DNA of 32,000 nucleotides from Candidatus Iainarchaeum sp. (lineage in GTDB: Archaea > Iainarchaeota > Iainarchaeia > Iainarchaeales > CSSED10-239). Made by a program: the position numbers and the translations under genes. Shown piece by piece: positions 3,721 through 30,395 of this stretch (position 1 is its first letter; each line of letters begins with the position of its first letter). The notes under the pieces were generated by a model. That model was not told the origin of the DNA. It made no database searches and was given only the letters and a program-made list of their open reading frames with translations. The stretch covers positions 1 to 32,000 of the forward strand of contig JBBISB010000002.1 of assembly GCA_037441475.1 (NCBI GenBank), written 5' to 3'.

Positions 3721-3802
3721 TGCAGGGTACAGGATTCGAACCTGTGAAGCACTAAGCAATGGATTTTGAGTCCATCCCCTTTGACCGCTCGGGAAACCCT
3801 GC
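3721..3802 (-). tRNA. tRNA-Leu (anticodon CAA)
   Basis: Reverse complement folds as a cloverleaf: acceptor GCAGGGT/ACCCTGC, anticodon stem ATGGA/TCCAT with loop CT-CAA-AA, long variable arm, T arm ACAGG-TTCGAAT-CCTGT, discriminator A. No encoded CCA. Confidence 0.9.
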
Positions 3803-5706: not shown

Positions 5707-5789
5707 CGCAGAGGACGGGATTCGAACCCGTGTAGACGTAAGTCTCTAGCTTAGCAGGCTAGCGCGTTTGACCACTCTGCCACCTCTGC
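5707..5789 (-). tRNA. tRNA-Ser (anticodon GCT)
   Basis: Reverse complement: acceptor GCAGAGG/CCTCTGC, anticodon stem CTAGC/GCTAG with loop CT-GCT-AA, long variable arm AGAC-TTAC-GTCT, T arm ACGGG-TTCGAAT-CCCGT, discriminator G. Confidence 0.9.
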
Positions 5790-8263: not shown

Positions 8264-8484
8264 ATTTTTTTCACCTTTTTATTTTTTTAAAAAAAACTTG
8301 AAAAGAATTATTTTTCTTAACCAAAAAAAAATAAAACCTCTTCAAGTCATAAGCTTTACTATTCAACTTATGTTTTCAGGTATTTAAATAGATTCTGTGA
8401 AACTTAGCGAAACTTTGTGAAAAATAGAGAGAAAATAAGTGAAAAAATAATAAATTAAGATAAAATAAGAAAATTAATAAAAAG

Positions 8485-8556
8485 CGCCCCAGACGGGAGT
8501 CGGACCCGTCCCGCGACCTTGACAGGGTCGCATCCTAACCGATAGACCACTGGGGC
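8485..8556 (-). tRNA. tRNA-Asp (anticodon GTC)
   Basis: 72 nt. Acceptor GCCCCAG/CTGGGGC, anticodon stem CGACC/GGTCG with loop CT-GTC-AA, T arm ACGGG-TCCGACT-CCCGT (non-canonical T loop), discriminator G. Confidence 0.85.
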
Positions 8557-19697: not shown

Positions 19698-21998
19698 TCA
19701 GTCAAGGTGGAGGTTTATAGGCATTTCAATTCTTACTATTACAACCCAGGTTCCACCGTAAGCAGAACCTGGCATATCAGGAAAACCGTTTGCTCCATTA
19801 CCTATATTTGCAGCAGCATTACCATAAGTACTATTTCCATTACCTCCTTTAGCATAAGCTACAGAAGTCCCTGTAATGCTGTTTGAAATACCAGGAGCAC
19901 CAGCACCACCTGCTGCTGAAGAACTACCAGCAGTACCTATTCCATTTGCACCACCATAACTAAAACCAAAACCTTCTTCATTTGTTGCCCCACCTGTAGA
20001 AGTTGTAGCTCCAAAAGAACTACTTGTTCCAGAAATTCTTTTACGAGGCCAAGAACTATCAGTATATCCACCAGAACCAATAGTTACAGTAGTGTTACCT
20101 AAACTAATAGCTTGACTTGAAAAATATCTATATTGCCCACCATTTCCTCCAGCTCCATTGTAAGGAGCACCACCACCGCCGCCCACAACTAATAATTGTC
20201 CTGTTAAAGCAATATTTGAGTTAAAGGTTCCACCTGAAATGAACCTATGAACTCTCCATACAACTCCACCTGAAACACCCTCAGTAATTAAACCACCTGA
20301 TGAAATAACTTTTCTTACATAAATAGTGTAGGTTTTAGATGGAGCACCAGAAACTGTTGCAACCACAGTAATTGTTTTTTCTAAACCGTCAGAAATATTT
20401 ATTGGACCTGATTCTGAACCAGAAGTTACTGGAGAAACATTAACAGTTATTGTTCCTGATCCAGTTGGAATAACAGTTTTACTATTTATTGTACTTGAAA
20501 GATATCTTACCCCACTATAGGTATATGTACTTGGACTAAAAGTATAGTAACTCGAATAATTCAAAAAAATATCAGTAAGATCTGGAGTTACAGGATCACT
20601 TATAACTACATTATAAGAAGAAACAGAAGTTGCACTTCTTGAAGCACCATCAACAACAGTTACTCTAATATATTTTGTACCAATAGTTGAAAATGAAAAT
20701 GTTTCTGAAGAGTTATTACCTCCAAAAATAATCCATGTGCTTTGATTTGTACTGTATTCCCAAGTATATGTAGATACTCCATTAACAGCATTACTTACTG
20801 AAGATACAAAAGTTATATTTGCATTTGTAAAATGACCTGATCCAGATGTTGGAGAAGTAACACTTGCTGATAATGGATTTGCAACTAAAACACCAGTTAT
20901 TGTGTTTGAATAACCAGTATTAATTGGAAAAGGTCTTCCCGAGTCTGTTAACAAAACTCTAAATTGATAAGTTCCACCAGTTGCAAAAACAGCTGTAATT
21001 GATGCTGAGTTTGTTCCAAAGTTTGTCCACCCAGTATTATCTCTATTATGTTGCCATTGATATGTAATAGTTCCAATATTATTTACAGAACCTACAGTAA
21101 AAGTAATTGATTGACTTAAGTTATATACAGAACTGTTTAAAGGAGAAGATGTAGTTCCTGTCAAAAGAAGAACAACTGTGAAAGAAACACTTGAAGTTGA
21201 AACATCTCCTGTTCCTGTATCTGTAACCTTATAAAAAACAGTATAGCTTCCTGTTGTTTCAAAAGTATGTGTTAAAGAAGAACAGTTAGTTCCTCTTGAG
21301 GTATTAACGTCACTTAATCTTGATATCCATTCACAAGTCACAGCAGAAGTGTTATTATCATAACTTCCATTAAAAGCAATTGCTTCATTGTTGTTCCATG
21401 TACTTCTTGATAAAGCAGTTATGCTTGAAGAAAGATTATCTAAAATATTTACAGAAATTGTGTTTGTTGAAGTAGAAGAGTCTCCAGTATCATTAGTGTC
21501 AAGCTTTATTGAATAACTGTTTACACTTGGAAGGGAGAGAGTAGTGTTACAACTACTACTAAAAGAAGTAAAGGTGCCTAAATCTGCTCTTTTATGACTC
21601 AAGTCACATAAAACAATTGACATATTATTATCAACAGTTGAAGTTAAATTGAAAGTTTTATTAACATTTATATATTTTCCATCAACAGGAGCATTTATGC
21701 TTGATGAAAAAGCATCCCATAAATATAAAAATATTGTTTTACTTGATGTTGTTTCATCATCAGTTGCTACAAGTAAGATTTCATAAGTTCCAGCTGTTGT
21801 AAAAGTATAAGAAATATCACAACTTGTGTTTGAAGGATTCATTCTTACTTGAGAACCGCCATTAATTGTTTGATAAAACTCACAAGCAGCTGTTCCTTTT
21901 GCATTACTTGCAGTTGTATTAAAATCTATTAAAGTATTTGTTCTTTTTTTATCAAAGGTTACAAGATCTGTAAAAAATATTTCAGGCAGGCATTTCAA
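19698..21998 (-). CDS. Large surface adhesin-like protein: five PKD/Ig-like repeats, a cadherin-like beta-sandwich and a C-terminal glycine-rich domain
   Basis: 766 aa. Repeats carry (C/Y)xW...TF...GTY...V.D signatures, e.g. TYQWQHN..GGTYQFRVLLTD and TYTWEYS..GTKYIRVTVVD. Cadherin-like LTDIFLNYSSYYTFSPSTYTYSG...KTYTIYVRK. Gly-rich LLVVGGGGGAPYNGAGGNGGQYRY...VTIGSGGY. Many N-x-S/T sequons. TTG start directly after an in-frame TAG, with no SD and no signal peptide. Confidence 0.7.
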   Translation of the reverse strand: MKCLPEIFFTDLVTFDKKRTNTLIDFNTTASNAKGTAACEFYQTINGGSQVRMNPSNTSCDISYTFTTAGTYEILLVATDDETTSSKTIFLYLWDAFSSSINAPVDGKYINVNKTFNLTSTVDNNMSIVLCDLSHKRADLGTFTSFSSSCNTTLSLPSVNSYSIKLDTNDTGDSSTSTNTISVNILDNLSSSITALSRSTWNNNEAIAFNGSYDNNTSAVTCEWISRLSDVNTSRGTNCSSLTHTFETTGSYTVFYKVTDTGTGDVSTSSVSFTVVLLLTGTTSSPLNSSVYNLSQSITFTVGSVNNIGTITYQWQHNRDNTGWTNFGTNSASITAVFATGGTYQFRVLLTDSGRPFPINTGYSNTITGVLVANPLSASVTSPTSGSGHFTNANITFVSSVSNAVNGVSTYTWEYSTNQSTWIIFGGNNSSETFSFSTIGTKYIRVTVVDGASRSATSVSSYNVVISDPVTPDLTDIFLNYSSYYTFSPSTYTYSGVRYLSSTINSKTVIPTGSGTITVNVSPVTSGSESGPINISDGLEKTITVVATVSGAPSKTYTIYVRKVISSGGLITEGVSGGVVWRVHRFISGGTFNSNIALTGQLLVVGGGGGAPYNGAGGNGGQYRYFSSQAISLGNTTVTIGSGGYTDSSWPRKRISGTSSSFGATTSTGGATNEEGFGFSYGGANGIGTAGSSSAAGGAGAPGISNSITGTSVAYAKGGNGNSTYGNAAANIGNGANGFPDMPGSAYGGTWVVIVRIEMPINLHLD

Positions 21999-22518
21999 CT
22001 AAACATCTTTTAAGATCTATTGTTTTTTTAGGACAAGTTGCTGTTGATAAAGTAAAGGACTTAATATTTCCTCCATCAATAATATCCCCAGAATCAATAT
22101 TAATATCGTTTGTTATAAATGTAAAACCAGAATCTGTACTTAAACTTTTAATTTCTCCTTCTTTTATAGAAGTATCAAACCTACCATGTACTTTTAAAAT
22201 ATCATCAGAAGCTTGAGATTTACCTTGTAAAGTTAAACTTAAGCCTTCAAAATCAATTGGGGTTGGGTTTCTTAAAAGAAGAGTGACTTTACTTGTTTCA
22301 TTATCAACATTACATGAAGTTACAACAAGAGAATATTTCATACATTCCATATTGGATGCAGATTGAAGCTCTCCTTGAGAAACATCTAACTTATCTCTTG
22401 CAGTTGTCTTAGACCATGATAAAAAACCAGCAACCATTACAGAGGTAACTAATATTAATAAAACCACAGAGATTATAGCAGAAATTGATTTTCTTTTAAG
22501 CATTTTTGATTCCTTCAT
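21982..22518 (-). CDS. Archaeal type IV pilin-like protein (class III signal peptide), copy 1
   Basis: 178 aa. MKESKMLKRKS|ISAIISVVLLILVTSVMVAGFLSW. 4 conserved Cys. Its 3' end overlaps the adhesin ORF by 17 nt. TGA stop. Confidence 0.75.
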   Translation of the reverse strand: MKESKMLKRKSISAIISVVLLILVTSVMVAGFLSWSKTTARDKLDVSQGELQSASNMECMKYSLVVTSCNVDNETSKVTLLLRNPTPIDFEGLSLTLQGKSQASDDILKVHGRFDTSIKEGEIKSLSTDSGFTFITNDINIDSGDIIDGGNIKSFTLSTATCPKKTIDLKRCLVEMPA

Positions 22519-22656: not shown

Positions 22657-23184
22657 TTATTCAACAAAACATCTTTTTAAATCTATAGTATTTTTAGGAC
22701 AAGTTGCTGTAGAAAGTGTAAAGGATTTAATATTTTCCCCATCAATAATATTTCCAGAATCAAAATTTATGTCATTTGTTATGAATGTAAAACCAGATTC
22801 TGTATTTAAATTTTTAATTTCACCTGATTTTATAGAATTACTAAAACTACCATGCACTTTTAAAATATCATTTGAAACTTGAGACTTACCTTGCAAAGTT
22901 AAACTTAAACCTTCAAAATCAATTGGAGTTGAATTTATTAAAAGAAGATGAATTTTATTTGTATTATTATCAAAAATACAAGATTCCACCATTAAATAAT
23001 ATTTTGAACACTCAACACTAGATGCGGACTTAAATTCTTGTTGAGAAACTTCTAGTTTTTCTTTTGAACTTGTTTTTGACCAAGATAAAAAACCAGCAAC
23101 CATAACAGAAGTTACTAAGATTAATAAAACCACAGAAATTATAGCTGAGATTGATTTTTTATTAATTAATTTTGGCTTCTTCAT
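22657..23184 (-). CDS. Archaeal type IV pilin-like protein (class III signal peptide), copy 2
   Basis: 175 aa. MKKPKLINKKS|ISAIISVVLLILVTSVMVAGFLSW. About 70% identical by eye to copy 1, with identical N-terminal helix and C-terminal FTLSTATCPK.TIDLKRC. TAA stop. Confidence 0.75.
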   Translation of the reverse strand: MKKPKLINKKSISAIISVVLLILVTSVMVAGFLSWSKTSSKEKLEVSQQEFKSASSVECSKYYLMVESCIFDNNTNKIHLLLINSTPIDFEGLSLTLQGKSQVSNDILKVHGSFSNSIKSGEIKNLNTESGFTFITNDINFDSGNIIDGENIKSFTLSTATCPKNTIDLKRCFVE

Positions 23185-23297: not shown

Positions 23298-23639
23298 TTA
23301 CCAAGAGACCTTATCATCTAACTTTACAAAAGAAACATCTGTTTCTACAGGTAATTCAATGATATATCTTGCCTTCTTTTTAGGAGCGTAGAAAGTAAAA
23401 GGTTTTAAACTTTTTTTAATATCCACAACCTTTTTTTCAGAATCTAAGAAAATAACATTTATTGGGTAAAAGACAAATAACATATGTATGGATGATCCTA
23501 AAATTGATTCATACTCTCTTTGAAAAATAAGACCAAACTTAAACTTTTTGCGAGGATAAAACATTAAGCCTAAACCTTGCTTTAAAGGAGAAAGTATTTT
23601 TTTTTTATTAATTAAGGTTTTATTATTTACTTTTATCAT
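23298..23639 (-). CDS. DUF192 (COG1430) family protein
   Basis: 113 aa. Pattern GLGLMFYPRKK...IHMLFVFYPINVIFLDSEKKVVDI...ARYIIELP is typical of DUF192. Confidence 0.65.
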   Translation of the reverse strand: MIKVNNKTLINKKKILSPLKQGLGLMFYPRKKFKFGLIFQREYESILGSSIHMLFVFYPINVIFLDSEKKVVDIKKSLKPFTFYAPKKKARYIIELPVETDVSFVKLDDKVSW

Positions 23640-23706: not shown

Positions 23707-24852
23707 TTAATTATACTCATAGAAAATTATAAAATCTATTCCATTCTTTGAAATTTCAAAATCTAAAAAGATTGCATCTGAAACAAAAATGGCATACTCT
23801 GCACAAGAAAAGCCACATTCTTTATTTTCAAAAGATAAAAAATATAAAGTATCACTATATGTTTTATCTAAAATATATCTAGAACTAATGGATTTTAAGG
23901 CAATTATGTTGCTTATTTTAATTGTATTTAAATTGTTTGCATTCATGTAAGTTATTGTGTCAATTAAAACCTTCTCTGCATCTGGCTTTGGAACAGTTAT
24001 TTGAAAAATTAAAACAATTATTACAAAGAAAACTAAAATATATTTTATAAAATTAAAACTACTCTCTTCCTTTATAGAAAACATTATAAAAGAAGTAAAG
24101 ATGGATAACAAAATAGCTGTATACAACAAGAAATTATCAAAGAAGATTCTTGTAATTAACTCTCCATCTCCATACCACAAAAAATTATAACCAAAGATAA
24201 TGTTTACAAAAAGAATAACTATTAAAAATATAAAAAATAAAACTATAGAAAGATAATAAAGGTTTAAAAAATATTTTTTCTTTTGAGACTCTTCTTTAAA
24301 AACAGTTAAGTCTTTTGAAATATTAAAAAGAACTCTGTCAAGAGGAACAGAACTATCTTTAAAAGTTTTTAAAAGTATTAAGGTATGGTTTATAATTGGA
24401 CTTTTAATAGTTTCATTAACATTTAATAAGGCATTTTCAAAATCATCTCCCCATGAGACTCTATTAGCTATCCTCTTTATTTCAGTATCAATTGAACCAT
24501 AGGTGTTTGATTTTGTGATATTTGTAAGAGACAAAGATATATTTTTTGTTATCTTATACTCTCTTGATAAATCTTGAAGAAAATAATTAAAAGAAGTTTC
24601 AATTGCCTTTTTTTTAAAATATTTAATAATAAACTCTAAAAAGAAACCAACAAAACTAACCAAAACACCAAAGAAAAACAAAAAATAATAAAGTTTTGTA
24701 TGTATAATATATTTATTTGCTATATAAACAATTAAAAGACCTGAAAGTATACTTGCAAGTATTAATATCTGATACTCATAATTGTATATAAACATCTTAA
24801 ACTTGATGTTAAACTTTTCAAATAAATTTTTATTATTTAAAACCATATTCAC
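23707..24852 (-). CDS. Type IV pilus platform protein, single T2SS-F-like domain with a C-terminal extra domain, locus B
   Basis: 381 aa. TM pair, cytoplasmic helical domain (FLQDLSREYKITKNISLSLTNI...WGDDFENALLNV), more TMs, then a tail of about 95 aa. Confidence 0.5.
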   Translation of the reverse strand: MNMVLNNKNLFEKFNIKFKMFIYNYEYQILILASILSGLLIVYIANKYIIHTKLYYFLFFFGVLVSFVGFFLEFIIKYFKKKAIETSFNYFLQDLSREYKITKNISLSLTNITKSNTYGSIDTEIKRIANRVSWGDDFENALLNVNETIKSPIINHTLILLKTFKDSSVPLDRVLFNISKDLTVFKEESQKKKYFLNLYYLSIVLFFIFLIVILFVNIIFGYNFLWYGDGELITRIFFDNFLLYTAILLSIFTSFIMFSIKEESSFNFIKYILVFFVIIVLIFQITVPKPDAEKVLIDTITYMNANNLNTIKISNIIALKSISSRYILDKTYSDTLYFLSFENKECGFSCAEYAIFVSDAIFLDFEISKNGIDFIIFYEYN

Positions 24853-24865
24853 ACATTCTTAAACA

Positions 24866-25708
24866 TTATTTATATAAGATAATAACTAATATAAACTCAA
24901 TGATTCCAAAAATTATTGCGAAAACCAATAAAGCATCCTTAAGATAAAGATAATCTGAAAAGGTAAAAAATAATATTACTAAAATTATTATAAATAAGAA
25001 AAATAAAAAAATATACATCAAAAATAAAAGATTGATCCTGCTTTTTTTCTGTTCACTAATCTCCCTTCTTGATTGTTCTAAACTTGAGAGGAAATCAGAA
25101 ACAACTTGATTTAAGTTTTCTTTCTTATCAATAACATCTATAAGCTTTCTAAAGAAATTTTTTTCAATCTCAGAATAAGTTTCAGAGATTATTGATTTAA
25201 AGGTATCTCTTAAATTATGGTTGTAATTTGTTAAAGCCATTATCTTTTTAGCTTCTTTACTTAAAAGATCATTATTTTCTAAATTTTCAAAAACCTTTAA
25301 GACATCTTCAATAGTTAAGTTTTCATCTTTTAAAACAGAAAGGTGTCTTATAGTTCTATTAAACTCATCTCCAATCTCTTTTTTAATTGCATCAAGTAAA
25401 TAGTAAGGATATTTATAAAGTAATAAAAAGATCATGAAAGAAAAGGTAAAAGCAATAAAGACAGTTATAAAGAAACTAAAAATATTAAACAAGATATTTA
25501 ACTTAATCATTAAAAAAATTAAAGCAAATTCAATGACTATTAAAAAGAATAGAGCAATAAATAAAATATTGGAGATATAGCTAACAGAGTCTTCATTAAT
25601 ACCAGTATAGTCAAGTACTTTTTCAAAACTTTTTAAGTTATCTTTAAACATTAAGACCAGGTCTTTGAAAAAGAAACTAGATATTTGTGTTAAAAATTTA
25701 CTGAACAT
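24866..25708 (-). CDS. Type IV pilus platform protein, single T2SS-F-like domain, locus B
   Basis: 280 aa. TMs flank a cytoplasmic helical domain (EIGDEFNRTIRHLSVLKDENLTIEDVLKVFENL...). Confidence 0.5.
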   Translation of the reverse strand: MFSKFLTQISSFFFKDLVLMFKDNLKSFEKVLDYTGINEDSVSYISNILFIALFFLIVIEFALIFLMIKLNILFNIFSFFITVFIAFTFSFMIFLLLYKYPYYLLDAIKKEIGDEFNRTIRHLSVLKDENLTIEDVLKVFENLENNDLLSKEAKKIMALTNYNHNLRDTFKSIISETYSEIEKNFFRKLIDVIDKKENLNQVVSDFLSSLEQSRREISEQKKSRINLLFLMYIFLFFLFIIILVILFFTFSDYLYLKDALLVFAIIFGIIEFILVIILYK

Positions 25709-25715
25709 ACATATA

Positions 25716-28688
25716 TCACTTTATATCAAGCTTTTTAAAAAGATTGTCTTTTTCAAAATAGTATTGAGATACAATACTATTGAAGTCCTTATAACTATAA
25801 ATCTTAGAATCTCTCATCCATCTCATTATTTTTTTTCTCTTTAAAAAATCAACGACATTTATTGACGAGGATAAAAGATTAATTGCATAAACATCCTCTG
25901 AAAGGTCAATATCAACAACCAAACTTTCTTTTTTATTAACAATTTCTCTAATATTCATTATTTGTAAGACTTCTTTTATACCTTGGTTTATTCTTTTAAG
26001 TTCAATAACTATTGACTTTTGATTTACTACTTTTAATTGATCTAAAAATTGATCTGCAACATCAGGGTTTATTGAAAATAAATTTATATTATACCATGAA
26101 ACATCAAAAACATCTTTTGAAAACTCATCAACAACTATGTAGTCTGGTTTTTGAGAGATTGTTTGTTCAATCATTAACTTCTTATTTAAATCTTGGTTAC
26201 TTGTAAAAACTCTATTAACCCATTCTTTCTGTGGAAGTTTAAAACGATCGTAAGCCTGAACTGTAATAATCTTTTTTTCAGGTAAAAATAATAAAATAGA
26301 GTTAAAGATAATAAATGAATCATCAGTATCTATTATCACAACTTTGTAGTTTTCTGCAATTGCAGACCAGATATATGAAAACACATCAACAGACCCAACA
26401 CTGGTGTTGATTAAAGAAACTGGGGTTAATGGTTCTTCTAAATATTTTTTAATTACAAAAGAAGACCCTTTACTACTAGTATCTCCAACAGAATAAAGAC
26501 CTTCCACCTTATAACCGTTAGGAAGATAACCGTCAATAACAGGATGTGCTTGAGTGATGTAAAGACCCATATTTTTTGTAAGTATTAAAACAAATTTATT
26601 GAGTTCATTGATATCTGGAAAACTAATGTTTGTTTTTAAAAGTCCATACTCTACATGCATGATTGAAAGAGTAGATTTTTCTCCTGAACAACTAACTTCT
26701 AGAATCTTTTTATCTTGTAAAAGGTTTGTTAAGATACCAAGACCAAAGAACTCTCTTTGTATAAACTTAAGATAAAGTTTTTGTTGAAGATTACCAAGCC
26801 TGTAAGAAAGTTTATCTAAGGAAATATCATATATCTTTTCTATATATTTATTTAAACTATGCTTATCTCCATTAAAAGAATAATAGTTTTTGTCAATGGT
26901 GTTGAAAAAAATTCTTTTTAACTGTTGATATTCTTTTTCTTGTTCAGCACTTAAATCAGGTTGAACAAGGTTATAAAATAAACCTAACTCTTGATCATAG
27001 TAAATGGTAACATATGTAAAATCATCTATAGAGTATTTATCATAGATTGTTGTAATATCTTTTTTAAAAGTTAAAATAGGGTCATTGTATACTAGTGAGG
27101 AAAATAAACTATTATCACTTGAAAGTTCTTCTTGATATATTTCTTTATTTATTTTAATAGGATTTTTACCTGCATCTTTTGGTAGTATATAATCAATTCC
27201 TTTATCTCTTAGATCTTTAAACTTTTCTGCAATTAAATCCTTTTTAACTCTAGGGTTTTCTTTTATTCTTTTTACAGTCGTTGTTTCAACTATTTGAGGA
27301 GTTTCAATTATTTGTTTTATACCTAACTGTAATTTTTGATCATCCTCTGGAGTAAACTTAATTTCTGAAAAGGTTTTTTGTGTGCTTGCTTGTTCTTCAT
27401 TTATTTTTTGACTAAAAGAATCAATATTAAATTTTTCTTCTTTTTTTAAAGGAACCCTAGTAATATTTTTCTTAATTTCTTCATTTAATTTTACTTGGTT
27501 GTTATCCATTACAAAGTTAGGTATCTTTTCAGAAGCTTCATTTGTTTTAACAATAGATACCATTTTTGAATCATTATTAAGATCAGTTATTTTTTCCTGC
27601 TCAGAGTTTACTTGAGAAATGAAATTTCTATCAATAACATCCTCCATATTTGAAGAATCGTCTTCAATTGCATACATATCAGGAACATCAATTTCTTCTA
27701 AAAGATCATACTTAAGAGATTCTTTTTTAATGTTATAATCTATTTTATCAACAGCAGAAGTTTGTTTTTCTTTAAAAGATGTTTCTTTTACAGAAGTTAC
27801 TGTTTCTTTCTTATGTTCTGTAAGTGCGTCTATTTTTGAATAAAGATTTTTAACATTATATGAGTTAAACTCAACTTTTTTCATCTTTGGCTTATCATCT
27901 AAGAAAGAAAAGACTTCTAAAAAAACATCTTCATTTAATTTATCAGTTTTTTTATTTAATTCTTCTAAAAGAGAATCAACATTTTCACTCTTATTTTTAA
28001 AAGACTCATAAAAATCATCTTTAGAATTATTTTTTAAAGGACTTTCTTTAAAAGGTTGAGAAACTTCTTTTAAAATTTCTTTTAAAATATTCATTGATTT
28101 ATCATTATTAATTGAATAATCTAAGGATAGGTCTTTTTTAATAACCTTGTCAATAACAGAAATGTTTTTTTCAGGAGATACAAAAGAAGAAATATTCTTT
28201 TGAGATTTATTATTTAAGGAAACTTTATTTTGAACAGATGTAGTTGATTTTACTCTTGAGCGCTTATTTAAAGAAATATCTAATAACTCTTTATGTTCAG
28301 GTATCATTAATTGATTATTTGAAAAAAACTTACTATGTTCTTCTATCATTAGGCGTGGTTTTGTTTCTTCTTTAAGAATAAGATCTTCTTTAGGAGTTAG
28401 AGAAGTTGCTTCCTTTACAATAATTTTTTCTTTAACCTTTTCTTTTTCAAAAGGATTAAATGGTTTTTTATGTTCAGAAATGTCAGAAACGTCTATTTTC
28501 AAGTCTACTTTTTTTACACCTTGATATTCCAAAGGAACTGTTTTAGTTTCTTTTTTATAAGGTAAAGAAACATCCATTTTTTCTAATCTATTTACTTTAG
28601 ATTCGGTTTGATATTTTTGAGTGATACTTTTAGATAGAGGAATTCTTTTAATTACCTTAAAATCTAAAGATCCATCTATTTCTGACAT
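25716..28688 (-). CDS. FlaI/TadA-like protein with a degenerate Walker A (probable pseudo-ATPase) and an N-terminal low-complexity extension of about 540 aa
   Basis: 990 aa. The C-terminal half is collinear with FlaI: FYNLVQPDLSAEQEKEY, REFFGLGILTNLLQDKKILEVSC, GSSFVIKKYLEEPLTPVSLI. The Walker A position reads IIDTDDSFII (DTDDSFII at 26307-26330) instead of GxxGSGKT, and the His box reads FSINP. Walker B-like KPDYIVVDEF is retained. AGGTAG upstream of the ATG. Confidence 0.65.
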   Translation of the reverse strand: MSEIDGSLDFKVIKRIPLSKSITQKYQTESKVNRLEKMDVSLPYKKETKTVPLEYQGVKKVDLKIDVSDISEHKKPFNPFEKEKVKEKIIVKEATSLTPKEDLILKEETKPRLMIEEHSKFFSNNQLMIPEHKELLDISLNKRSRVKSTTSVQNKVSLNNKSQKNISSFVSPEKNISVIDKVIKKDLSLDYSINNDKSMNILKEILKEVSQPFKESPLKNNSKDDFYESFKNKSENVDSLLEELNKKTDKLNEDVFLEVFSFLDDKPKMKKVEFNSYNVKNLYSKIDALTEHKKETVTSVKETSFKEKQTSAVDKIDYNIKKESLKYDLLEEIDVPDMYAIEDDSSNMEDVIDRNFISQVNSEQEKITDLNNDSKMVSIVKTNEASEKIPNFVMDNNQVKLNEEIKKNITRVPLKKEEKFNIDSFSQKINEEQASTQKTFSEIKFTPEDDQKLQLGIKQIIETPQIVETTTVKRIKENPRVKKDLIAEKFKDLRDKGIDYILPKDAGKNPIKINKEIYQEELSSDNSLFSSLVYNDPILTFKKDITTIYDKYSIDDFTYVTIYYDQELGLFYNLVQPDLSAEQEKEYQQLKRIFFNTIDKNYYSFNGDKHSLNKYIEKIYDISLDKLSYRLGNLQQKLYLKFIQREFFGLGILTNLLQDKKILEVSCSGEKSTLSIMHVEYGLLKTNISFPDINELNKFVLILTKNMGLYITQAHPVIDGYLPNGYKVEGLYSVGDTSSKGSSFVIKKYLEEPLTPVSLINTSVGSVDVFSYIWSAIAENYKVVIIDTDDSFIIFNSILLFLPEKKIITVQAYDRFKLPQKEWVNRVFTSNQDLNKKLMIEQTISQKPDYIVVDEFSKDVFDVSWYNINLFSINPDVADQFLDQLKVVNQKSIVIELKRINQGIKEVLQIMNIREIVNKKESLVVDIDLSEDVYAINLLSSSINVVDFLKRKKIMRWMRDSKIYSYKDFNSIVSQYYFEKDNLFKKLDIK

Positions 28689-28755: not shown

Positions 28756-29487
28756 TTATATAAACTGATTTAAGATAACTGACATTAAATCAAAAATATA
28801 TAAGAAGATTACAAGGATGTAACTAATAAAAATAAGGATAACAAAGGGAACTAAAGGAGAAACCCATACCTTTGAAACATTATTCTTTTTTGCAAAGTTC
28901 TTTAATAAAAGTATCTCTTTTTCAGGCTCTATGTTTGGAGCATAAATGATATTTGAAACTACCTTGTTGTTTTCTAAAGTTAATTTTTCTAAAGGAGTAT
29001 AGAATTTAGTAATTTTATTTAAAGATAAAGGGTATCCTAAAAACATTAGATAAAGGGATTTAAAAAAAGAAAATTTAGGATAATTTCTTTTAAAAACATT
29101 AAATAAGAATATAGATGTTGGAACCAATAAAGTTAAAAGTAAAGCAAAAAAGAAAACAAACATTGGAAAATAAATATTAAAGATATTAGTAAAAGACAAT
29201 GCCATTATTGTATATAAATCTCCCTCTCCGATATAAGTAAAATAACTTAATTTTCCAAGACCATAAAAGATTAATAAGAAAACAAAAGTAACAAATATTT
29301 GTAAAAAGTAAGCCCACCATAGAGAGGTGTTACTTTTAAAAATAAAAAAACCTAAATAAATTAGACTAACAATTGCAAGAACAAGTAAAGACATGATATT
29401 TATTTCACGATATTTAATGTCTTGATACGTAATATAAAGTAGAATAACTAAAGTAAATATAACTAATGGTAAATATAAAACATTCAT
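28756..29487 (-). CDS. A24-family prepilin/preflagellin peptidase (PibD/EppA/FlaK-like)
   Basis: 243 aa, polytopic. Two catalytic Asp contexts: YQDIKYREI and YIGEGDLYT. The start ATG overlaps the upstream gene's TGA as ATGA. Confidence 0.75.
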   Translation of the reverse strand: MNVLYLPLVIFTLVILLYITYQDIKYREINIMSLLVLAIVSLIYLGFFIFKSNTSLWWAYFLQIFVTFVFLLIFYGLGKLSYFTYIGEGDLYTIMALSFTNIFNIYFPMFVFFFALLLTLLVPTSIFLFNVFKRNYPKFSFFKSLYLMFLGYPLSLNKITKFYTPLEKLTLENNKVVSNIIYAPNIEPEKEILLLKNFAKKNNVSKVWVSPLVPFVILIFISYILVIFLYIFDLMSVILNQFI

Positions 29488-30395
29488 ATTGATCTCTTTG
29501 TAAGATACATTAAATCTTTGTAAGCTTTTGTTTTTGTTTTCCTTGCAGTTGATCTTTCAAAAAGATTATCTGTATAGATGCCAGGAGGACCTACAGACAT
29601 TATTCTTTTAAATTTAATTCTATCTAAGATAGTTTTATTTTTAACTTTATCATCTGAAGAATCTATCAAGGACTTTGGTAGATCTAAAGTTATAATACCA
29701 GATCCAATTTCACCTACATTATAACTACCAGAGCCTGCTGTTATAAACTTTGCAGATTTTCCAAGCTTAATGGCAGCTTCAAACCTATAAACAACATCAT
29801 AACTTTTTTGATCTATCTTGTGGGTTATATACTCACTGAAGTTTGAAAGCCCAATTGTTCTAAAAAATCTATGAAGTTCTAAATAATCTAAGACATCTCT
29901 AACTTTCCTTAAAAAGAAAGAATCATACATATAATAAGAAAGATAACCTATTGTCCCTGTATATGCCTCAACACCAATCTTCTTTTCTTTAATTAATTTT
30001 TCAAGTCTATCTAAACCTAATATATATGTTGCTGAGTTTGAGATAAGACCAAAAGGATGAGCTATTGTTATCATATAATTTTTTTTAGAACAAAAATCAA
30101 TTAATCTTCTTAAAGCAACTTTATTTTCATAAAGTATAGAATAGTTATACATCTCTTCATCAGAAGAGTAGACTAAGACCTCTCCTGAGTCTGTCATTAT
30201 CTTTATTCCAGGTATTAATATTTTATCTTTAGGTTTATATTTTAAAAGATCTAAGTATGCTTTCTTTGGATCTAAATAATTATATTCAGTTATGGCTGTA
30301 CCTAAAAGATTATTTTCACAAACTATTTTCCAATATTTCTTTACAGACTCTTTGTTTTTATGTAAGTGAGTGTGCAAATCTATGTTATAAAGCAT
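29484..30395 (-). CDS. PHP-domain-like metal-dependent phosphoesterase
   Basis: 303 aa. N-terminal IDLHTHLH and a later AHPFG. By-eye assignment only. First gene of the locus B operon. Confidence 0.45.
   Translation of the reverse strand: MLYNIDLHTHLHKNKESVKKYWKIVCENNLLGTAITEYNYLDPKKAYLDLLKYKPKDKILIPGIKIMTDSGEVLVYSSDEEMYNYSILYENKVALRRLIDFCSKKNYMITIAHPFGLISNSATYILGLDRLEKLIKEKKIGVEAYTGTIGYLSYYMYDSFFLRKVRDVLDYLELHRFFRTIGLSNFSEYITHKIDQKSYDVVYRFEAAIKLGKSAKFITAGSGSYNVGEIGSGIITLDLPKSLIDSSDDKVKNKTILDRIKFKRIMSVGPPGIYTDNLFERSTARKTKTKAYKDLMYLTKRSI

Follow-up and report, generated by a model that had tools for sequence, protein, structure and literature searches.

A Putative Pseudo-ATPase at the Motor Position of a Pilus Operon in Forterrea-like DPANN Archaea

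Introduction

What becomes of a pilus operon whose motor protein appears to have lost its ATP site? The question is raised by a 32,000-nucleotide stretch of DNA from Candidatus Iainarchaeum sp. (GenBank assembly GCA_037441475.1, contig JBBISB010000002.1, positions 1 to 32,000 of the forward strand), the whole of which is called the window here. At positions 25716-28688, among genes of a type IV pilus system, the window encodes a 990-amino acid (aa) homologue of the archaeal motor protein FlaI, referred to below as the pseudo-ATPase. An earlier note, made from the sequence alone, had described this protein as a FlaI homologue with a destroyed P-loop. The hosts of such proteins are ultra-small, probably host-dependent DPANN archaea, whose surface filaments are leading candidates for contact with a host. 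The type IV filament machines (pili, archaella, type II secretion systems (T2SS) and Tad) are defined by a hexameric motor of the PilT/VirB11 family, the ATP-site residues of which are reported to be essentially invariant (PMC5424180).

Results

A Secretion ATPase Fold without Nucleotide-binding Motifs

The pseudo-ATPase gene encodes a three-part protein.

25716-28688, minus strand: pseudo-ATPase gene, 990 aa, with an ATG start, a TGA stop at 25716-25718 and an uninterrupted frame.
27111-28688, minus strand: family-specific N-terminal extension (residues 1-526), rich in Lys, Glu, Ser and Asn, mostly predicted to be disordered and without a transmembrane segment.
26424-27110, minus strand: FlaI/GspE-type N-terminal domain (residues 527-755), aligned to PDB entries 2OAP and 4II7 and modeled with a predicted local distance difference test score (pLDDT) of ~85-92.
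25719-26423, minus strand: RecA-like C-terminal domain with a PilB3_C-like helical end (residues 756-990), with full-length Foldseek matches to 2OAP and 4IHQ.

The G+C content of the DNA around this open reading frame (ORF) is ~25%, a composition at which chance does not produce long frames, and the 990-codon frame is real. The Shine-Dalgarno sequence ascribed to it is present, in a weak form (GGTAG, 7 nt upstream of the start). The product is identical to the 990-aa protein P0001 of the public collection, and no transmembrane segment was found in it (maximum KD19 value 1.6).

A phmmer search of the PDB matched residues 557-856 to afGspE (2OAP, E = 1e-34) and the protein, collinearly over ~320 residues, to Sulfolobus FlaI (4II7, E = 2.6e-23), with a weak match to CpaF. 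A profile of the pseudo-ATPase family matched 2OAP with E = 9.8e-39. The AlphaFold2 (AF2) model of residues 527-990 (pLDDT 87.4, predicted template modeling score 0.83) superposes over its full length on 2OAP (Foldseek E = 5e-32, template modeling (TM) score 0.78) and on FlaI (TM score 0.73), with CpaF, PilB, VirB11 and PilT as the next matches. The N-terminal PAS-like domain and RecA-like C-terminal domain of PilT/VirB11-like secretion ATPases are thus both present in the model, and the homology to archaeal FlaI that had been proposed for the C-terminal ~450 aa is borne out.

The thresholds of the curated FlaI and T2SSE models are not reached. The NCBIfam FlaI model (NF058587) gives E = 1.3e-35 but a score of 123 bits against an equivalog cut-off of 550 bits, and Pfam T2SSE (PF00437) has no match at E ≤ 1 in the window protein and none at E ≤ 0.1 in 18 family members. 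PF23989 (PilB3_C) matches the C terminus of 12 of the 18. The combination of PilB3_C matches with the complete lack of T2SSE matches argues for descent from pilus ATPases of the PilB3/GspE type and against FlaI proper as the source.

PilT-like ATPases conserve the Walker A motif, an atypical Walker B motif, a catalytic glutamate, a pair of arginine fingers as well as the Asp-box glutamate (PMC5424180, McCallum et al.); the His-box histidine is also highly conserved (PMC5424180). All five conserved residue classes are gone from the pseudo-ATPase, which lacks six defining sequence features of the PilT/VirB11 ATPase family. The former motifs lie at the following positions.

26439-26486, minus strand: former arginine-finger block, GDTSSKGSSFVIKKYL (canonical RGSxFTIRKF).
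26286-26345, minus strand: former Walker A region, KVVIIDTDDSFIIFNSILLF, in which strand, loop and helix are kept, the loop is shortened to 4 residues and GK[ST] is absent.
26244-26273, minus strand: former Asp box, KIITVQAYDR, in which the Mg-coordinating Glu is replaced by Gln-811, invariant in the family.
26118-26147, minus strand: former Walker B motif, PDYIVVDEFS, in which the canonical Gly is replaced by the invariant Asp-854 and the catalytic-Glu position is variable.
26061-26093, minus strand: former His-box region, YNINLFSINPD, with a 5-residue deletion and no His.

At the Walker A position VIIDTDDSFIIFNSILLFLP is aligned to VVGETASGKTTTLNAIMMFIP with a 2-residue deletion, the window protein having IDTDDSFII where the canonical sequence is GETASGKTT; overall the shortening of the P-loop is put at 2-3 residues. 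Secondary structure assignment of the AF2 model with DSSP places a strand at residues 256-260, the loop at 261-264 and a helix at 265-275 (model numbering). In the family alignment this former P-loop (residues 783-796) is the least conserved stretch of the core; its flanks are still conserved. The Asp box reads ITVQAYDRF against VSIEDTREI, and the family pattern is [IV]Q..D in place of IEDTxE. At the Walker B motif and catalytic glutamate the canonical VGEV is VDEF in the window protein, the Glu position being occupied by E, Q, N, Y, K, D or T across the family. The His box reads LFSINPD against ATIHAEN, beside the 5-residue deletion. The arginine-finger block reads KGSSFVIKKY, the second Arg being an invariant Lys in the family.

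The alignments to 2OAP and FlaI confirm the destroyed P-loop and the readings of the Walker A motif, Asp box (VQAYDRF) and His box (FSINP) given in the earlier note. Its statement that a Walker B-like DEF survives holds for the window protein and not for the family. The note had named in advance, as a finding that would count against it, an intact P-loop elsewhere in the protein. This alternative is ruled out, as strict and relaxed pattern scans over all 990 aa detected neither GK[ST] nor a relaxed P-loop pattern. The former active site retains invariant residues of another kind, namely Gln-811, Asp-854, Phe-856 and Trp-865, together with a near-invariant Asp-790. As judged from sequence and model, canonical ATP binding and hydrolysis are predicted to be no longer possible for the pseudo-ATPase.

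A Monophyletic Family under Purifying Selection

A profile of the C-terminal part was searched against 1.84 billion representative proteins, and the matches were clustered at 50% identity. Sixteen clusters scored above 500 bits, all without GK[ST]; the next matches scored at most 215 bits, and almost all of these have an intact GxxxxGKT. These clusters make up a P-loop-less family, and all of them come from Candidatus (Ca.) Forterrea-like Iainarchaeota (DPANN). Its hosts comprise Ca. Forterrea multitransposorum (complete genome CP045477.1), 'Ca. ainarchaeum', and metagenome-assembled genomes (MAGs) of Diapherotrites/Iainarchaeota. Close homologues, of 940-1130 aa, have 42-61% identity to the window protein, and members of a second clade, of 757-820 aa, have 44-50% identity in the C-terminal part; both groups lack the P-loop. 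Orthologues are found in more than 12 independent assemblies and at least three clades, and a scan of metagenome contigs added at least four further loci. In a neighbor-joining tree the family is monophyletic and lies inside the intact FlaI-like ATPases.

One distant-clade protein, P0057 (L022:8001-10475), has a P-loop that is substituted without being deleted (KKDNRKCDE) and shares the arrangement PibD-X-T2SSF-T2SSF. P0057 has the appearance of an earlier step or of a sister lineage. Two further FlaI-like proteins also depart from the canonical motifs: P0118 (L023/L024) has GKAKSGKH at the P-loop position and has lost the Asp box, and P0100 has GTGRTS at the P-loop and a Walker B motif with GD rather than GE. 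Catalysis may have been lost among FlaI-like proteins stepwise or more than once.

The domain that has lost its motifs is held by strong purifying selection, at the level of its neighbors. Between the window and its closest relative, locus L015 (dS 0.19), this domain differs by 45 synonymous and 7 non-synonymous changes, giving a ratio of non-synonymous to synonymous rates (dN/dS) of 0.034. Among Forterrea-like strains dN/dS is 0.028-0.041, with dS of 0.1-0.19 over the comparisons. The corresponding values for neighboring genes (window against L015) are 0.032 for a beta-CASP protein, 0.038 for orf303, 0.054 for PibD and 0.024 for T2SSF. Amino acid identity to the Forterrea orthologue is 78% for the dead domain, compared with 74-76% for T2SSF, 65% for PibD and 61% for the pilins. 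The most conserved part of the whole protein is residues 716-753, which correspond to the subunit-interface block of canonical motors. Selection for a non-catalytic role, which had been argued from the long uninterrupted ORF, is substantiated by the dN/dS of 0.03-0.04 across orthologues, which is like that of the neighbors, and by the monophyletic, shared loss. Homology to an enzyme family, loss of catalytic and cofactor residues, and purifying selection across species are attributes of a pseudoenzyme, and these three are found here. On sequence grounds, the protein is appropriately filed as a pseudoenzyme derived from the PilT/VirB11 family and not as a member ATPase.

A Disordered Extension with Conserved Islands

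Across the family, members carry an extra 300-650 aa at the N terminus. In a full-length AF2 model of the window protein, residues 1-236, 275-387 and 462-526 have pLDDT below 50, and no Pfam domain was found in the extension of the window protein or of 17 relatives. The N-terminal ~540 aa had been described as a Lys/Glu/Asn/Ser-rich low-complexity sequence with no transmembrane segment. The composition and the absence of a transmembrane segment stand, with the boundary at about residue 526, but the region is not featureless: four conserved islands are common to both clades.

27822-27974, minus strand: island 1 (residues 239-289), SLLEELNKKT..FLEVFSFLDDKPK..NLYSKID, weakly predicted as a helix and beta-hairpin (pLDDT 50-61).
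27663-27701, minus strand: island 2 (residues 330-342), LEEIDVPDMYAIE, an acidic motif.
27483-27527, minus strand: island 3 (residues 388-402), KIPNFVMDNNQVKLN, modeled by AF2 as a beta-hairpin and helix (pLDDT 61-66), with Asn-402 invariant.
27171-27197, minus strand: island 4 (residues 498-506), IDYILPKDA, with Tyr-500, Pro-503 and Asp-505 invariant.

Invariant residues of island 1 are Leu-244, Glu-258, Phe-262, Pro-267, Leu-282, Tyr-283, Lys-285 and Asp-287. An acidic motif resembling island 2 (EEI.VP) is also present in P0057. A hidden Markov model of the extension matches every P-loop-less family member compared and none of ~250 intact ATPases. This restriction marks the extension and the missing ATP site as derived characters that are linked. 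Evolution of the extension is faster than that of the core, with 36% identity to Forterrea and a dN/dS of 0.23-0.50, but still under constraint.

Tandem repeats in the window gene are trivial ones only. The extension of the Forterrea orthologue contains a 45-bp (15-aa) tandem repeat in 5.7 copies (L007:8353-8610), which accounts for the 15-aa steps in length among cluster members in deposited genomes (1071, 1086, 1101 and 1116 aa). The repeat shown within "a secretion-related ATPase" in Fig. 1F of Probst & Banfield 2018 (PMC5905446) is probably this one; that paper ascribes such differences to local scaffolding errors. In the L015 protein a 12-aa insertion (EPVLKEGLVTKK) is found in the extension.

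The Pilus Operon

The pseudo-ATPase gene lies in an operon with the following members.

29484-30395, minus strand: orf303, the conserved first gene of the operon, with an N-terminal DLHTH motif.
28756-29487, minus strand: prepilin peptidase of the PibD/FlaK type (Pfam Arc_PepC_II 1.2e-12, Peptidase_A24 2.4e-6).
24866-25708, minus strand: platform protein half 1, T2SSF/FlaJ-like, 280 aa (Pfam T2SSF 6e-12, NCBIfam ArlJ/FlaJ 9e-9).
23707-24852, minus strand: platform protein half 2, T2SSF-like, 381 aa (Pfam T2SSF 2.3e-6).
23298-23639, minus strand: DUF192 protein, conserved in the operon.
22657-23184, minus strand: 175-aa pilin-like protein whose signal peptide is of class III type (..NKKS ISAIISVVLLILV).
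19698-22518, minus strand: second pilin head (21982-22518) and PKD-repeat surface protein (19698-21998), frameshift-split relative to an 811-aa pilin-headed adhesin.

The order orf303-PibD-pseudo-ATPase-T2SSF (280 aa)-T2SSF (~380 aa)-DUF192-pilin/surface proteins is found in all 12 loci compared, with the two T2SSF genes always directly downstream of the pseudo-ATPase gene. In none of the 12 is there another gene of the T2SSE family within 10 kb of it. Only 7 nt separate the stop codon of the pseudo-ATPase gene from the ATG of platform half 1, and in loci L004 and L022 the two genes overlap. The L015 ORF is 5 codons longer (YMYVQ, L015:13013-13027) and also overlaps the platform gene.

The operon is not that of an archaellum, as it lacks the KaiC-like FlaH, FlaX, FlaF/FlaG and archaellins. 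The prepilin peptidase keeps both catalytic Asp motifs, DxxxR (YQDIKYREI) and GxGD (IGEGDLY), and the class III-type N termini of the operon pilins are conserved. With intact peptidase motifs and pilin signal peptides, the remaining parts of the machine look functional from their sequences. The protein encoded by orf303, always first in the operon and 59-81% identical across clades, has a faint match to the CehA/McbA metallohydrolases (E = 0.004) and no match in the PDB by sequence or by profile. At the other end of the operon, relatives (L006 and L002) have a single pilin-headed adhesin of 811-814 aa, which in the window is split into a 178-aa pilin and an overlapping 766-aa PKD-repeat ORF in another frame, with a TTG start and a 2-nt gap at the junction (~21990). 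The pilin and PKD parts are likewise separate genes in Forterrea (L001).

A Second, Distantly Related ATPase Locus

The window contains a second secretion ATPase, at what is here termed locus A, ~13.6 kb from the pseudo-ATPase gene.

10833-12589, minus strand: ferredoxin-fused TadA/VirB11-like ATPase of locus A, with an intact P-loop (GNTGSGKTT); the gene is disrupted.
9302-10661, minus strand: two small T2SSF-like platform genes of locus A, intact.

The Walker A motif, Asp box, Walker B motif and His box of this ATPase are all intact, and its orthologues, single proteins of 584-587 aa, have an N-terminal 2x[4Fe-4S] ferredoxin domain. In the window the gene carries two lesions. A 1-nt deletion near 12129 splits the ferredoxin ORF (12092-12589) from a start-less ATPase part, and a change of CAA to TAG at 11187-11189 follows directly after the His box, leaving the protein in three pieces. 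No independent assembly across these two lesions was found, L015 stopping short of them. The disruption is either a recent pseudogenization or an assembly or population variant.

The locus A ATPase, the paralogue of the earlier note, is of another subfamily than the pseudo-ATPase (TadA/VirB11-like versus FlaI/GspE-like), with 22% identity between the two over 212 aa. Its gene is here interrupted both by a frameshift and by a TAG codon in frame, and no similarity is detectable between the platform proteins encoded at the two loci. The complete Forterrea genome encodes both the pseudo-ATPase and an intact ferredoxin-T2SSE fusion, 15 genes apart, and the pair also occurs in NPID01 and the SRR7299214 MAG. 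Apart from this fusion, no intact relative was seen alongside the pseudo-ATPase in the loci examined.

TadA/CpaF-like pilus ATPases fused to an N-terminal 2x[4Fe-4S] ferredoxin domain are frequent among DPANN MAGs from Iainarchaeota, Micrarchaeota and Diapherotrites (for example L006:10001-11764 and L016:3395-5149). Our literature search for ferredoxin-fused pilus ATPases found nothing. The fusions suggest redox-linked control of pilus assembly, and the co-occurrence of such a live ATPase with the pseudo-ATPase hints at redox control of pilus dynamics.

Discussion

The central claim of the earlier note, that a FlaI-type homologue with a dead P-loop has been selected for a non-catalytic role, is upheld by the loss of all five residue classes, the monophyly of the family and the dN/dS of 0.03-0.04. 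The pseudo-ATPase has the fold of a secretion ATPase without its nucleotide motifs, is under purifying selection throughout its family and has a fixed position in an operon that contains no live ATPase. Our preferred reading, to which we give a probability of roughly 0.55, is that it is a non-catalytic, platform-bound scaffold derived from a pilus motor. It would be produced together with the prepilin peptidase, the two FlaJ/TadBC-like platform proteins, the DUF192 protein and the pilins, and would most likely dock on its own platform proteins at their cytoplasmic face. The docked protein would probably be an oligomeric ring, acting as a static cap or adaptor and not as a motor. The four islands of the disordered extension may recruit other partners, and ATP-driven work on the pilins, if there is any, might be supplied in trans by the separate ferredoxin-TadA-like ATPase module with its own platform genes.

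Several points weigh against such a scaffold. Oligomerization, platform binding and the loss of nucleotide binding are all deduced from sequence and structural models, and the full-length AF2 model gives neither a confident structure nor a docking of the extension. The absence of another ATPase covers 10 kb around the operon, so that an intact FlaI-like ATPase elsewhere in these genomes is possible; on the contig beyond the window, the one flank examined has housekeeping genes only. The candidate trans-acting ATPase is itself disrupted in the window and, if that disruption is real, the pseudo-ATPase operon persists without it. Finally, with Gln-811, Asp-854, Phe-856 and Trp-865 invariant, the old site could have gained a new ligand instead of being inert.

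The last point leads to the proposal that the old site has been repurposed as a ligand-binding or enzymatic pocket with non-canonical residues, for instance one that binds a second messenger of nucleotide type, a peptide or a metal. These four residues and the near-invariant Asp-790 do line the old pocket, but the P-loop has been cut to 4 residues and no other stretch of the core is less conserved, the acidic pocket lacks a Lys or Arg for phosphates, and the arginine fingers are lost; we regard a repurposed site as distinctly improbable. A role as a decoy or brake, in which a dead ring locks the machine by contending with a live ATPase for platform or pilins and serves as a negative regulator or as a latch that prevents retraction or extension of the finished adhesive filament, would explain the platform-coupled gene position and the lack of catalysis as well as a scaffold does, and archaeal ATPase/TadC modules that have sets of pilins in common are known (PMC4858521). 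The pseudo-ATPase, however, has its own dedicated platform genes, whose products are not detectably similar to those of locus A and so offer no obvious shared binding site, and an extension with conserved islands suggests recruitment over plain blocking. A decoy or brake is therefore considered unlikely. Alternation with the locus A ATPase in a mixed ring, as non-catalytic subunits do in F1 or in clamp loaders, was another role listed in the earlier note. The two genes co-occur ~13 kb apart in several genomes, and conservation in the pseudo-ATPase is highest in the interface block (residues 716-753). Nevertheless, a hetero-hexamer is quite unlikely and is the least favored of the roles listed there, given the 22% identity over 212 aa between members of different subfamilies, the differing N-terminal domains, the separate platform genes, and a locus A gene that is broken while the pseudo-ATPase is maintained at a dN/dS of 0.034.

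Two explanations would take the protein out of pilus function altogether. Its operon position might be merely historical, the protein serving, for example, as a cytoplasmic hub or as a nucleic acid binder through the Lys-rich extension, which is indeed large, charged and lineage-specific. This is very improbable in view of the strict synteny and tight coupling to the platform genes across deep clades, P0057 included, and of an evolutionary rate equal to that of the platform proteins. The protein could also be a decaying pseudogene or an artifact of annotation or assembly, as other pilus genes of this genome carry lesions. With a 990-codon frame at 25% G+C and orthologues in more than 12 assemblies this is scarcely tenable, and it was rejected on the dN/dS values of 0.03-0.04 and the number of orthologues.

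The platform-bound scaffold can be carried a step further, although tentatively. In the filament of Forterrea-like DPANN archaea the motor position might be permanently held by an inert ring whose disordered arm recruits partners; pilin extraction would then be powered in trans by a redox-sensing ferredoxin-TadA motor, or the filament would be a motor-less, static attachment device for episymbiosis. We consider this scenario possible rather than probable. If true, it would provide the first pseudo-motor described in the type IV filament superfamily.

Among known systems, the afGspE/PilB3-type ATPases are the best match to the pseudo-ATPase in both sequence (E = 1e-34) and structure (TM score 0.78), sharing the N-terminal domain, the RecA-like C-terminal domain, the helical C terminus and the adjoining FlaJ/TadC-like genes. 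They differ from it in having nucleotide motifs and in lacking the extra 300-650 aa at the N terminus, and the pseudo-ATPase falls below the Pfam and NCBIfam thresholds. FlaI/ArlI is collinear with it over ~320 residues (E = 2.6e-23, TM score 0.73), but the pseudo-ATPase is encoded in a non-archaellum locus, scores 123 against 550 bits with the FlaI model and is catalytically ablated. The TadA/CpaF-type ATPase of locus A belongs to the same superfamily and is likewise paired with two small TadB/C-like genes; it is unlike the pseudo-ATPase in its intact motifs and in the 2x[4Fe-4S] domain of its orthologues, the two having 22% identity. In other ATP-driven machines NTPase folds have been turned into a static scaffold or stator, as in the cytoplasmic domains of GspL and PilM and in the clamp-loader delta-prime subunit. 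Those folds are unrelated (actin-like and AAA+), and to our knowledge none of them is of the PilT/VirB11 family. The nearest functional analogy in archaea is FlaH/ArlH, a non-hydrolyzing cytoplasmic partner with an ATPase fold that makes protein contacts in an archaeal filament machine (PMC5019145). FlaH, however, is a KaiC-like single domain that keeps its Walker A motif, must bind ATP and works beside a live FlaI, whereas here the motor homologue itself is dead.

No published description of this family was found. The Forterrea genome paper calls the gene "a secretion-related ATPase" only (PMC5905446), a survey of archaeal type IV pili (PMC4858521) and a dark-matter review (PMC6393860) mention no inactivated secretion ATPase, and a literature search for inactive or degenerate type IV pilus ATPases in archaea or DPANN returned nothing relevant. 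That the motor of an operon has been replaced by a conserved and constrained dead copy implies that the structural role of the motor fold is separable from catalysis, and it raises the question of how, or whether, pili with a pseudo-ATPase are energized. For work on platform binding, the family also offers a motor that is "ATP-free" by nature.

Other Features of the Window

Three tRNA genes are present in the window, and no other Rfam match was found in it.

3721-3802, minus strand: tRNA-Leu(CAA).
5707-5789, minus strand: tRNA-Ser(GCT).
8484-8556, minus strand: tRNA-Asp(GTC).

Positions 15713-16153 and 16277-16738, both on the minus strand, encode two small membrane proteins, tandem paralogues 146 and 153 aa long, of which relatives have one copy. 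The orthologous position in L001 has a weak match to DUF5684.

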